From positions 242,110,001 to 242,174,000 of the forward strand of contig OZ024743.1 of NCBI GenBank assembly GCA_964016885.1: a stretch of 64,000 nt of DNA, written 5' to 3'. Shown here one piece after another: positions 720 to 61,192 of the stretch. The notes beneath the pieces were generated by a model. The model saw nothing but the letters and a program-made list of their open reading frames with translations. It had not been told where the DNA came from and did no database searches. Position 1 is the first letter of the stretch; each line of letters starts with the position of its first letter. The translations under genes and the position numbers were made by a program. The DNA is from Eledone cirrhosa. Taxonomy: Eukaryota.

Positions 720-856
720 TAGGAAAATGTTTAACCCCAACGGCTTGATCTCTGCCGTCGGGGTTAATCATTTTCCTATTACCCACTCTACTACCCTAAG
801 TATTGAGTACTCTGGTGCGTTATGGTCCATCTGTTCCTTACCACACCTCCTTCGCT
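720..856 (+). mobile_element. (TA)n-embedded hairpin+tail element, family B copy 1
   Basis: Inverted arms ~720-744 and ~754-778, then an ~80-nt tail (tacccactctactaccctaagtattgagtactctggtgcgttatgg...) shared with five other copies; TA runs on both sides. Confidence 0.8.
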
Positions 857-1039
857 ATATATATATATCTTTACATGTATATGTGATATGTGTGTGTGTG
901 TAGGTGTTTGTATTCCCGTGCAGCCGGAATTCGATGTCTTCACAAACTCCATATTCGATAAAATGTATCTTTGTCAAATATGAACTCGTAGTAAATTTTA
1001 GCCGAACTATTAGACCTCGCTGGTAAGACTGGGTCAATA

Positions 1040-1425
1040 TATGGGCGTGGTGGTGGATAGGTGAATGAACGTGTGAATGTATGGGTAGATTGATAGGTTG
1101 GTGAACGGGTTGGTGAATATAGTAGAGTGATGAGTTGAGTGATGGGTAGATGGGTGAAGGGCAATAGATTGATGGATGAGTAGATGGGTTGGAAGACTGA
1201 TGGGTGGGTGAATAGGTGGACGTGTAGGTGTAGGTGGATGAATAGGTGGACGTGTAGGTGGGTGATTAGAAGGATAGATAGGTTGATTAAAGCTTTGGTG
1301 GGTAAAAGGTTAAAGGGTTGGATGGGCTGTTGGGTGAATTCGTGGAAGGGTGGATTCGTAAATAGACGGATGGATGCGTGGATGTATTGATGGGTGACTG
1401 AGTGAATGGGTAGATGGATGGTGTG
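1040..1425. repeat. Degenerate (GGAT/GGGT/GAAT)n tetranucleotide tract
   Basis: Purine/G-rich 4-mer periodicity. Confidence 0.7.
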
Positions 1426-1798
1426 TTAGAAGAAGCACTTGAAGCAGAGAACAAAAGAAAAATTTGTGAAGGGATCGATGTATATTTGAATGAGTGAACA
1501 GGGGTATGTGAACGTTAATAAATTCAGAAAACGTGGATAGAATGTTATATGTTTATATTGTGTTGCACAGCTGAATAATTCTTTTGTCCAATATGAGCCA
1601 GTATATTAATTGCAATTATCACCCATTGGTGGATATTAGTTATTATGCAAAATCAAACTTAAAATATATAAATATGTGAAACTTCGGTGAGCTGTTTGAA
1701 ATATATATCACTTAACTACCAAAAGTATGAAAGGCAAAGTTTCCGTCGGCGAGATTTGAACTCAGAGCGCGAGCATAAAAAATTCCTTTATCGACCTT

Positions 1799-2030
1799 GT
1801 GGTGGATTGGCAGTATCGGTAGTAGGTCGGACGCTATGCTTTGCGGCATAGAGTTATATCCCTTTACTTCATGGGTTTAAATCCTGAAGATGTTAGCTTT
1901 ACCTTTCATCCTTACGGGGTCGATAAAATAAAGTACCAGTAATGCACTGAGATAATTGCTGGCCTTGTGCCTAAAGTAGAAACAATTATATTACCGCGGT
2001 AGATTGGCAGTATCGGTAGAACGTCGGACT
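1799..2030 (+). mobile_element. tRNA-derived SINE (family 1), full copy plus the 5' part of a second tandem copy
   Basis: A-box-like tggcagtatcggtag, decayed B box, central cctttcatccttacggggtcgataaaataaagtaccag (resembles the Meta/MESC SINE domain), 3' end ccttgtgcctaaagtagaaacaatt. Confidence 0.85.
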
Positions 2031-3015
2031 GACGAAAGGTAAGCCACGCACGGAAATAAAATCGTACTCCTAATGTTGAGCAAACCCATACATCTATATA
2101 TTGGGGAAAATATCGGCAGTATTAACAGAAATGTGTTTGTTTTTTATTCTTCCTGTCCATTACTAATGAGATAATATTTATGCGTTTGTTATGTTAAAAG
2201 ACATTTGGAAATGATGCAATGAAAATTTCGAAAATGGGGGACCGCTTTGGGATAATGCATTCAGATAAATATAACAAAGGTCTTCAATTTTTAAAAATCG
2301 GAAGGTTTGCGAAACGTCCAATTTTAATATTTCAGTCATCATCCAATATCTAAAGAGAAAATGAAAGTCTTTGACAATATATATCTTGATATAGAAAAAA
2401 GGGGAAGAATGCCACATAAAATTGGAGAAAATATTGTTATATCTGCTGTGAAGGAAGTCATAAATACTCTTATGAAACGACACCGAGATGGAGGCAAAGG
2501 AAGTTCACGTGGCAAAGCTGGAGTAAGAAGTTCGTCATGACACCAGTAATGGATGTGTGTAGAGAGTGAGAGAGATAAAGTACTCTGGCTCTCCTTTCAG
2601 GTTATTTCTCTGAATGACAAACAATTCAGTAAAATGTTATATTTATAAGACTGCAGAAGAGGGTGGCATAACGATAACATCAAAGCTTCAATAGTGTATG
2701 TTTTCTATCCAGCTGGACAGGTCAAGATTTGGAGGTTATAATATACGCATACCTTATCAAAATTATTGCAGTTGCAGTAAAAATTGAACTTTGGTGAATT
2801 TTTAAGAAGCTATGTGGTCATAATTGAAATGAGGTTCAAATGAAGGTGGATTGTCACGGTTGGAGGGCAAAATGTGGGAAATTGAATGTATAGGAGATAG
2901 AGAGAGAAGGTGAAGCATGTGATAACTATATACAAAAGAAAGAGATTTGGATAAACACAGACAAACTTTCACAACTATATGTGTGTGTGCAATATATGTA
3001 TCTGTCTGCTGCCTT

Positions 3016-3310
3016 TCTCTCTCTCTCGCTCTCTCTCTCTCACACACACACACACACACACTCTCTCCCCTGCTCTCTCTCTCTCTCTCTCTCTCTCTCT
3101 CTATCTCTCTCTCTTCCTTTCTCTAACTCTCTCTCTTCCTCTCTCTCACACACTCTCTCTCTTCCTCTCTCTCACTCTCTCTCTCTCTCTCTCTCTCTCT
3201 TCCTCTCTCTCTCTCTCTCTCTCTCTCTCTTCCTTTCTCTCACTCTCCCCTGCTCTCTCTCTCTCTCTCTCTCTCTCTCTCTCTCTCTCTCTCTCTCTCT
3301 CTCTCTCTCT
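3016..3310. repeat. (CT)n/(CA)n compound microsatellite
   Basis: Direct inspection. Confidence 0.95.
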
Positions 3311-58379: not shown

Positions 58380-58423
58380 CTGTACTGATGAAGGGTGATA
58401 CCCAGAAACATTAGTGTCTGCAG
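58380..58423 (+). ncRNA. Type-I hammerhead ribozyme
   Basis: ctgta-CTGATGA-a-gggt-gat-accc-a-GAAAC-attagt-GTC-tgcag; canonical core, stems I and II pair. Confidence 0.82.
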
Positions 58424-59009
58424 TTCTGTTCGCATGCCAACACAAGAGCAAGAATGAAGTGTTCATTCTACTGATATGGCTATAAAATTGAGGCTTGTTT
58501 GCAAAATTGCAAACGAATCGAATGTTATTATTAATATTCGAAAAACTCAGATTACATTTATTATATATATATATATACCCAATACAAATTGTAGGTCATT
58601 GTTGTGTGCATGACAAATTATCTACTAACTGGACTATTGCCGTCATCGATGACTAGGTATTTGGTGTCGCATTTCTGTCCATAGCATTTGCTAGTTTTAC
58701 TTCAGATGCTCAGGTCACCCGGATTAAAAAACAAGAAGTGTTTATCTTTTTCATGTTAGAATATTCAGAAACTTTACAAGTGGGAGGTGTGAAATTTCTC
58801 AAATGACTGAAGAAAAATTCCTTAAGATTTAATTTTTCTCTGCTTTTCCTTCGTTACTTCCTAACATGATCGCACACATGAGACATCTTTACCTCATATG
58901 TTGATGTATTTTAACTAAGCACATTTAGTTTTGTATTTCAAAGAAACGAAGTATGTTGATGGCATGATTTGCATGTCTTTACTAAACAGCAGTAAAGGTT
59001 GATATTGAT

Positions 59010-59142
59010 TGTATGGTATGGCGTTCATATCTTTACCAATCTCTAGTAGTGAATGTTGATGGTATGATGGCGTTCATATCTTTACCAGTCACTAGTAGTG
59101 GATGTTGATGGTATGATGGCGTTCATACCTTTACCAGTCATC
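59010..59142. repeat. 49-bp tandem repeat, ~2.7 copies
   Basis: gcgttcata at 59021, 59070 and 59119. Confidence 0.88.
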
Positions 59143-59217
59143 ATTAATGGTTTAAATTAAATAAAATGATTATCAATGAGAATCCAACCAACGTTACTCA
59201 CTCAGATTTCCACGGCA

Positions 59218-59360
59218 TATGGCACTAAATATTGATTGTTTGATTTCTTACTGTGTCACTAAGTATCGGTTAATTTTTTACTGTCTCTCTAAGTGTTGAT
59301 TATTTTCTTTCTGTGTAACTAAGTATTGATTTCGTACTACGGCACTAAATATTGATTGAG
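59218..59360. repeat. Degenerate ~30-bp tandem repeat, ~5 copies
   Basis: Recurring ctaa(a/g)t(a/g)ttgatt. Confidence 0.6.
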
Positions 59361-61087
59361 AGATCTGTAAATGATGGGATAAAGTCCAGCCTATAGATCT
59401 CCCTAACAGTTATTTTATTGACTCCAGGACAGTATTTATATCGTTTAGTCAAAGAGAGAAGGACAATACCTGTTACACTTTCAGGGCTTCTGAGATTAGT
59501 TTTGGAATGGCGTCATGTTAAAGTTAAACTGACTAATGAAGCAAGGTAGTGAGCAATGTATGGACTCTGTGTGTGTGTATTACTTTAACTTTGCGTTGAT
59601 TTGGGTTGTATTTCTGTCGGTTTGCTTGGCAGATAATCTACTAAGATTCTCTAAGCTCATAGGTATGTCCTAAATACTTGTTGCAGTAAGAACTCCACTA
59701 AAAATACCCAAGAGTCAGGTGGTGATGTTAAACCTGCCCATAGATTACGTCTCCTACCAACGTAGGTCACATAGGTATTTTAACTTTGAACGCAAAGACC
59801 TAGACCAAATACTACAAAGAATTTCATCCGACATAAACAATTTCACCAATTCACTATCTTGGACTGGTACTTTATTTTATCGACCACAAAAGGATGAATA
59901 GCAAAATTGACCAGCTAAGGATTTAAACTGTAGAATTTGAAAGGTAAATTCTAAACTAGTAGGATTTAAAATCTGAATGCAGAAAAGTAAAATAAATTTT
60001 ACTTTCTAACATTAAGAGAAGGCCACAAATTTGAGGTTAGTCGTTTAGATTTACCTTAGTACTTGACTTGTACATTATTTTATCGAGCTTTTCAAGATAT
60101 TTTGTCCAACATTCCGGGGGTCTGCTGGATGTTTAGTCTGGCATTGTTACAGACACAACAAACACGAAGACAAACCCATTGATTACGTTTAACCAACGAG
60201 GAAACGTTTATGTGACTGCTCAATCAGCTGGAAATAGCAACCAAATCTCCTTGGAATCTCAACCTACCGCTTTAATAGATGAAGAAGACATTAGAAATAA
60301 TTCTGTTTGGCAGTGGGGAAGATGAATTGTTACGGTTAGGAATCCTTAAAACATAGCGCCACTAATCAGAGATTACTGGGATCAAATCGACAAACAGTAA
60401 CACCCTATATACGTTAAATGTTTCAAAACATCTCATATTGTTTGAGGCTATAATTTACGTAGAAATTAACATAACAGAACCAGCTGCTTCTCAGTATGTA
60501 ATTCTAATTTGATTATATCATGTTTCTCAATTCATATCTCGCCAGTGTTGGCTCGACATTGTCTTTCATCTCTCATCTCTGGCAAGTCGATAATACAAGT
60601 ACAAATAATAAAGTCGATTAAATCGACTTTATCCTCGCCCTACCACATTCCTCCGAAGACGTAGAGTAGCCTAAATATTGTCTAGGAAGGAAATCAATAT
60701 TTCACATTATAATAGCCATGAAGTGCCATGAAACAAGTAGTGCTAAGCTGCCTGCCGGGGTGATGAACTGGGGAGGCCGCTAGTATGGCTGTGTGTTTAT
60801 AAGCTTGCTTTGCAACCGATTGTTTCCAGGTTCGAACACATGTAGTTTTATGTATATATATCTAATTAAGGATAATTTTCAAAAGAGGACAGAAACGAAA
60901 ACAATGTTAAGTAAGGTACTCAATACATTAAGTAGAGAAGATGCAAATTCCTAATGATGCCAAATTAATAAAACAGTTCTGGTCCTGTAAATGCCATTTC
61001 TATTTGGTATATATATATATATATATATATATATATATATATATATATATATATATATATATATATATACATATATATATTTATATA

Positions 61088-61192
61088 TAGGAGAAAGTAT
61101 GACCCAGACGGCAGAGCTCAAACCGTTTCGACGGCTATTTCTGGACTAAGGTGCGTTATGATCCATTTGGTTCCTTACCACAACTCCTTCGT
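61088..61192 (+). mobile_element. Family B element, copy 6 (internally deleted)
   Basis: Inverted arm joined directly to the distal tail ggtgcgttatgatcc; TA flanks. Confidence 0.75.

Follow-up and report, generated by a model that had tools for sequence, protein, structure and literature searches.

Short palindromic repeats of Eledone cirrhosa as stumps of a Penelope-like element, probably primed at two fixed sites

Introduction

The insertions of Penelope-like elements (PLEs) follow a published layout, consisting of an inverted, 5′-truncated copy and a one-sided tail (PMC3846280, PMC8557442, PMC2377424); in these accounts, the elements form partial tandems with a head-to-head inverted copy, carry the tail at either end and target microsatellites. 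The origin of the tandem and inverted structures and of the microsatellite targeting is a named open problem (PMC8557442), and self-priming was proposed for the inverted junctions in 2013 (PMC3846280). In 2024, in vitro work on Poseidon PAc showed that both target strands are nicked and extended, that reverse transcriptase (RT) starts at two internal sites bounding the tail, and that uncleaved RNA is used, a dimer being predicted; the main text of that study does not explain the inverted copy (PMC11167929). Here, we analysed a stretch of 64,000 nucleotides from Eledone cirrhosa (assembly GCA_964016885.1, contig OZ024743.1, positions 242,110,001 to 242,174,000 of the forward strand; hereafter the window) that contains six copies of a short repeat, family B, which an original prediction made from the sequence of the window had described as palindromes generated by self-primed fold-back synthesis.

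On the strength of sequence features, family B is identified as the truncated 3′ ends of a Hydra-clade PLE inserted in (TA)n, i.e. as a family new to a known clade, with an insertion layout already described. Each of these stumps was probably built by twin priming at two fixed TAT sites, the ends of the two complementary DNAs (cDNAs) being then joined. No account of twin priming or of 5′ run-off for PLE insertions was found in the literature searched, a scope outside which most subscription papers and the 2005–2006 PLE reviews fall, and supplements may bear on the novelty of this proposal.

Material and methods

Fourteen evenly spaced 10-kb stretches of the genome gave only two matches to the tail of the family, the window being denser with six copies in 64 kb; as such stretches were too sparse, pattern matches ordered by position were used as the sample instead. 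Sample 1 comprised the first 90 tail matches by position, classified by eye into 63 short two-part copies, 10 long copies, 13 tail parts alone or unparsed and four atypical copies. Sample 2 comprised 100 inner-site ends (the first 30 of 7,569 for subfamily A and the first 70 of 800 for subfamily D), namely 88 two-part copies, six lone inner-site arms and six long copies. This second sample was selected on the tail-less arm and is biased towards long tail-less arms; about 22 copies are common to both. The rates given below for chimeras and end pairing are based on the 100 read ends and are not genome-wide.

The extents of the arms were curated by hand, the automatic junction parser having misread indels and internal palindromes (corrected loci include L176, L186, L193, L195, L224, L232, L258, L259 and L263). 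Loci retrieved as best matches were kept out of the geometry counts of short copies, since the query favoured palindromes, but all of them entered the test for an untemplated G at the arm end (cap-G test), and six of them, once extended, are among the 10 long two-armed copies considered below. Arm identity was tested on 45 columns in 37 copies of the position-ordered sample, L076 being excluded as misaligned.

Results and discussion

Six copies with two fixed ends

The six predicted copies are all real and lie at or near the places where they had been announced, and their tails match one another (E 1e-10 to 1e-43). They are delimited by two fixed ends 80 nt apart, which we name the outer site (CGT/TA, the slash marking the end) and the inner site (CC/TAT). 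The predicted fixed endpoint of the inverted arm, about 80 nt short of the end, was recovered in six copies out of six: the tail-less arm always ends at the inner site, within 1 nt, against (TA)n. This microsatellite flanks at least one side of all six copies and both sides of most sampled copies.

Copy 1 (722–855, forward strand) begins with a tail-less inverted arm at 722–738 (to about 744), followed by a sense part at 739–855, which includes stem III, the GUC site and the stem I strand of a hammerhead-like motif, and of which 777–855 is the 80-nt tail. In copy 2 (9022–9198, forward), the inverted arm (9022–9077, 56 nt) is followed by 22 untemplated bases (9078–9099), a sense arm of 20 nt only (9100–9119) and the tail (9120–9198); the inverted arm thus exceeds the 20-nt arm that fold-back would need as its template. 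Copy 3 (9364–9567, reverse) has its tail at 9364–9443, a sense arm from 9444 to about 9503 and, after a short junction filler, its inverted arm at 9511–9567. Copy 4 (48352–48526, reverse) belongs to a divergent subfamily, with the tail at 48352–48431, the sense arm from 48432 to about 48487, the junction at 48488–48494 and the inverted arm at 48495–48526. In copy 5 (56199–56406, reverse), the tail (56199–56278) and the sense arm (56279–56339) are separated from the inverted arm (56346–56406) by six untemplated bases (56340–56345), and both arms stop at a boundary common to the family. Lastly, copy 6 (61090–61192, forward) passes directly from a 60-nt inverted part (61090–61149) to the last 43 nt of the tail (61150–61192), the two being without overlap; it has no second arm and forms no palindrome, so that five of the six copies, rather than all of them as first described, are two-armed. 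The segment following GGGG, said to match between the arms of a copy, is one base off in copies 1 and 2, and its last bases differ in copy 4.

Family B has at least 24,271 copies in the 3.0-Gb genome, this being the number of exact matches to a 34-nt tail pattern, for which the reversed control gave none. An assembly artefact is an improbable source of these ends: in contigs from a public run (its kind unrecorded, the source sample being a possible origin), loose TA ends are seen at both sites and the summed depth rises sharply over the 140 nt in question. Target-site duplications were legible in only two of 53 copies (13–14 bp), a weak signal, as 7 of 2,000 shuffles also reach two. At five loci (L015, L069, L099, L135 and L229), copies of the family adjoin or sit within each other's TA flanks.

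The parent element

No ORF (open reading frame) of family B lies within the 64-kb window. Elsewhere in the genome, longer matches extend through a 3′ untranslated region (UTR) of about 1.2 kb into the endonuclease domain, and six arrays consist of head-to-tail units of 3.53–3.55 kb plus an inverted truncated copy; copy 3 shares 97% identity with the end of such a parent unit. An intact ORF of 717 aa carries the RT, with YRDD at 348, and a GIY-YIG endonuclease, with YIGLT at 606, and 11 of the 15 long ORFs in the six arrays are 717–719 aa in length. These domains were assigned from motifs and homologues (2,049 at E 1e-30 or better), a Pfam search with a 637-aa piece of the protein having returned no match. 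Longer members, whose existence had been predicted, were found, with both a whole hammerhead-like motif and a Penelope-type ORF. In the arrays, both fixed sites are internal and located upstream of the first Met, with TAT directly after each, and the parent unit has no inverted end of its own.

The protein displays SDKT at 116 and LRWR at 36; among the parent and 120 homologues, DKT is present in 112 of 121 proteins and DKG in none. The linker reads CxCx5C (C572–C574–C580), CxxC is found at C670/C673 and CxH at C698/H700, whereas CCHH is absent, no cysteine being conserved between 587 and 669 in 60 aligned proteins. The marks described for the Hydra clade are DKT, RWK, a CxCx5C linker, CxxC with CxH, no CCHH and a (TA)n target (PMC8557442). 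Family B resembles this clade, of which Hydra-1_Obim is an example, through its RT with C-terminal GIY-YIG, DKT, RW[K/R], CxCx5C linker, CxxC and CxH surrounding the conserved E and N, lack of CCHH, (TA)n target and terminal hammerhead-like motif (PMC8557442), and the N-terminal half of the printed Hydra-1_Obim protein is, in a comparison by eye only, clearly alike. We nevertheless consider it a different family, because the unit of family B reaches 3.5 kb with its 3′ UTR of about 1.2 kb while the described Hydra members are mostly under 3 kb, because it carries RWR and the clade RWK, and because its hammerhead-like motif has a long stem III and a U3–A8 or C3–A8 core, in contrast to the row listed for Hydra-1_Obim (PMC8557442).

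The arms of the short copies correspond to the 3′ half of this type I hammerhead-like motif, which is whole in the long members. Three helices, a UUGA-N-AA or CUGAGAA core, GAAA and GUC were recognized in 10 of the 11 long members printed; in L126, the core is altered. The three-way junction is the lowest-energy fold, yet no more stable than those of shuffled sequences (z 0.34), and an Rfam search for a hammerhead in family B gave no match. PLE ribozymes with a U3–A8 core are on record (PMC4209133). All copies that cross the GUC site would have to derive from uncleaved RNA.

Two further peculiarities were seen among long copies. In the L156 array (G000:C1, about 91.49 Mb; 3260–6831 of the joined, reversed stretch), the head-to-head junction coincides exactly with about 65 repeats of a 55-bp segment of the ORF, as if a satellite had arisen at the inversion point. 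In the independent copies L034 and L035, the inverted arms end 3 nt apart (−1558 and −1555), next to a CCTATATAGG palindrome in the endonuclease coding region, possibly a second hot spot for stopping or cutting.

Identity and geometry of the arms

The two arms of one copy differ by 1.95 nt on average, compared with 4.51 nt between any two copies (permutation p 5e-5), and the arms do not cluster by side (left–left 4.37, right–right 4.66, left–right 4.51). However, arms of different copies of the same subfamily are equally close (1.78 nt), and in the non-diagnostic columns four variants are common to both arms against 59 on one arm only. Partner arms agree in subfamily in 56 of 58 subfamily-D copies and in 30 of the 37 copies of the identity sample, mostly with single-base differences. 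The arms are therefore remade from one source at each insertion and match at the level of the subfamily, not of the copy; the claim that palindromes are made anew per insertion is borne out by this test and by the diversity of junctions, while the copy-specific identity attributed to the arms holds only in that arms within a copy are closer than arms between copies at large. This identity rules out inherited terminal inverted repeats (TIRs) but does not discriminate fold-back from priming twice on a single template.

Regarding geometry, the tail-less arm is longer by at least 8 nt in 13 of 63 copies of sample 1 and shorter in eight (p 0.38); the corresponding figures for sample 2 are 25 and 11 out of 88, with no overlap at all in seven. 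It is also longer in six of the 10 long two-armed copies, by up to about 1.3 kb. Each of the four arrays (among six) with both ends in view possesses one outer and one inner end, the tail being on the long side in two and on the short side in the other two. In L164, no continuous template for the tail-bearing arm (unit 1580 to 144) exists in the other arm, whose end is at 61. Six of the 100 inner-site ends are lone arms without a tail-bearing partner, and no inner–inner pairing was observed among these 100 ends. One candidate for such a tail-less perfect palindrome, L267 (G000:C1:54339700–54340300), turned out on reading to be a normal copy with an internal (TA)18 tract; this tract lies exactly at the inner TAT site, between arm and tail, which hints that the site may itself serve as a target or a microsatellite seed.

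The junctions display 0–6 nt of microhomology or an untemplated filler, and in 16 of 70 subfamily-D ends the junction is a loop-less GTAC palindrome. Among the fillers of L063, L100 and L253 are 13 T, 14 A and a tract of 25 nt rich in (GGT), reminiscent of untemplated or slipped synthesis.

Probable twin priming at two TAT sites

Under the proposed route, both target strands would be nicked and the target 3′ end (…ATA) would prime on UAU of the element RNA. Two minus-strand cDNAs, one per target strand, would start at the inner and outer TAT sites, 80 nt apart, with one RNA or RNAs of one source as template, and annealing or end joining would link their 3′ ends head to head, before fill-in. 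Long copies could stem from an uncleaved transcript, at the 3′ end of which both sites are present a second time. Loop-less GTAC junctions are expected if two strand ends anneal, but are hard to obtain from one self-priming strand.

Such a route has parallels in described systems. PAc, the one PLE assayed in vitro, likewise has two tail-bounding RT start sites downstream of the hammerhead cut site and extends both strands, although its sites lie within the ORF and lack homology to the cut DNA, while those of family B lie upstream of the first Met and their TAT matches the target (PMC11167929). In the twin or dual priming of L1, the second target strand primes internally and yields an inverted 5′ part joined through microhomology or end joining; in L1, however, this is a variant route, described with sequence deleted internally between the two fragments, whereas in family B the inner site is fixed, such an arrangement is the rule and the parts overlap in most cases (PMC2837659). 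Compared with the published PLE layout, the tail is longer (80 nt versus 30–40) and most copies are stumps of 100–220 nt that share the inner boundary (PMC3846280, PMC8557442, PMC2377424).

Several points weigh against twin priming. The mechanism is deduced from finished insertions alone, and later deletions in unstable palindromes could yield lopsided copies, the age test described below being of low power. The excess of 25 over 11 stems from the sample favouring long tail-less arms, and the other sample shows no skew (13 versus 8). Double use of one RNA would require strand displacement, and the 3-nt TAT match to the target seen here is at odds with the PLE start sites used in vitro. Besides, arms almost never mix subfamilies, and a convincing number of two-RNA chimeras was not found: the candidates (L102, L072, L097 and L088, the last being the same copy as L199) are few and could reflect mutation or conversion. 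In L088, the left arm and tail are of subfamily D and the right-arm segment before the inner site is of subfamily B (three bases), a mosaic that may have arisen through conversion or template switching.

The upstream boundary of the arms

The turn-around point had been described as variable. It does differ between copies, but within bounds, as the longer arm mostly extends 52–63 nt upstream of the inner site (50 of 63 and 78 of 88 short copies in samples 1 and 2, respectively) and passes 63 nt in only two and one of them. Within this interval, two A residues, at −58 and −62, follow a TATA-like TATTTAAA or a variant of it, located inside loop II of the hammerhead-like motif, at distances of 29 and 25 nt, respectively. 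A TATA-to-start spacing of 29 nt is that of core promoters. A TATA/initiator (Inr) pair has been described in the pseudo-long terminal repeats (pLTRs) of PLEs (PMC3846280), and an internal promoter in Penelope (PMC2377424). Short copies may thus represent run-off of the RT at the 5′ end of a transcript from a candidate start at −58 (or −62), a prediction to which we give even chances.

An untemplated base preceding −58 is G in 13 arms and A in five (among 149 arms, p 0.10), and G occurs at control positions too. A single contig was obtained from the one RNA run consulted, and it falls outside this region. With two cDNAs still primed as above, the boundary might instead be a site of RT pausing or fraying at the A/T-rich tract of loop II, or an RNA processing site, which we hold possible but doubtful. 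It adjoins a T-rich tract and resembles a splice acceptor, the cap-G excess is not significant, and long copies run past it; on the other hand, arms often match the genomic sequence through AG to −58 or −62, and the spacing from the TATA-like element suits a core promoter. A splice acceptor proper was rejected, as the arms have no constant upstream exon.

Rival origins of the palindrome

In the fold-back mechanism put forward by the original prediction, the cDNA primed at the outer site would copy itself and stop, or be captured by TA, at the inner site, lopsided copies resulting from later deletions. Arms of one copy are nearly always of the same subfamily, as fold-back would have it, yet this is no argument in its favour because two cDNAs from one RNA or source locus match equally. 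Many junctions are palindromic or hold a filler able to form a loop, the rare outer–outer copies with tails at both ends (L061 and L102 among 90; also L010) are those that read-through would yield, and self-priming has its precedent in the 2013 proposal mentioned above. Fold-back, however, makes the tail-bearing arm the template, so that the other arm cannot hold more than it, and yet it often does. As the main route, fold-back with a defined stop fails in the 25 copies of 88 whose tail-less arm is the longer, including the seven without any overlap, and is contradicted by copies 2 and 6 of the window and by six of the 10 long copies. To rescue it, deletions would be needed in over a quarter of the copies, although in 19 of these 25 the tail-less arm still reaches the common boundary, and deletions of 2 to over 10 kb would be required for arrays with the tail on the short arm. 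Lopsided copies are not measurably older than the others (0.94 differences in the tail for 16 lopsided copies, 0.77 for 44 others, p 0.5, with low power), and neither the lone inner-site arms nor the loop-less junctions are explained. We thus regard fold-back as unlikely.

Still less likely, in our view, is a free palindromic DNA (a cDNA hairpin or a self-primed copy of an antisense RNA) that the endonuclease would trim and integrate, with one side cut at the outer site and the other at the inner site. Such an intermediate lets either arm carry the tail, the tail has been ascribed to endonuclease-mediated resolution of an intermediate (PMC8557442), and the TAT at both ends is a plausible cut motif for a nuclease targeting (TA)n. 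Nonetheless, it leaves unexplained the dominance of one end of each kind and the lack of inner–inner pairs among 100 ends, and requires extra steps for the seven non-overlapping copies; in vitro, the tail boundaries are RT start sites (PMC11167929).

A miniature inverted-repeat transposable element (MITE), or another non-autonomous unit inheriting its inverted repeats from a palindromic master copy, is scarcely credible and was rejected, as the original prediction had also held: one junction is common to 16 subfamily-D copies, but as a microhomology of 4 nt it would arise repeatedly, the majority of junctions occur only once, the arms do not cluster by side, the ends are asymmetric, and family B derives from the 3′ end of an element that codes for an RT and lacks an inverted end in its units.

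Animal non-LTR retrozymes are also short hammerhead-bearing sequences from PLE ends, but they are head-to-tail and contain whole ribozymes, whereas the stumps of family B are head to head with only the 3′ half of the motif (10.64898/2026.07.22.740005). This identity was rejected on the same grounds, and the stumps show no sign of self-propagation.

Implications

Although the insertion layout itself was already published, family B combines intact ORFs with two ends defined to the base and more than 24,000 natural products, which is material enough for a statistical separation of fold-back and twin priming and for the design of an in vitro test. For annotators, it is a caution that such hairpins are retroelement stumps, not MITEs.

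More speculatively, and with the odds rather against it, PLEs in general might integrate by obligate two-ended target priming, one ribonucleoprotein allotting two fixed UAU sites of one RNA to the two target strands; the short palindromes, tens of thousands in number, would then be strong-stop-like run-off products from a TATA/Inr promoter in loop II of the hammerhead, and self-cleavage would throttle the element. If true, two-ended priming would account for the inverted copy as well as for the one-sided tail, the promoter in loop II would give the transcript a 5′ end with half a ribozyme and a 3′ copy with a whole one, and the throttling would come about because self-cleavage strips the priming sites needed for full-length copies.

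Other fold-backs in the window

The window also contains seven fold-backs unrelated to family B, most of them beside (TA)n (16428–16796, 18349–19330, 19605–19820, 48623–48758, 52860–52909, 56801–57376 and 57803–58566), which are probably stumps of other PLE families. The first of these, at 16428, is extended on one side, and its spacer holds a TTGATAAG stretch that resembles the core of the hammerhead-like motif of family B. Finally, at 56604–57432, a fold-back with 261-nt arms lies next to or inside a smaller inverted repeat (56655–56828; 56604–56636 with 57400–57432), an arrangement that suggests a nested insertion into a TA tract.

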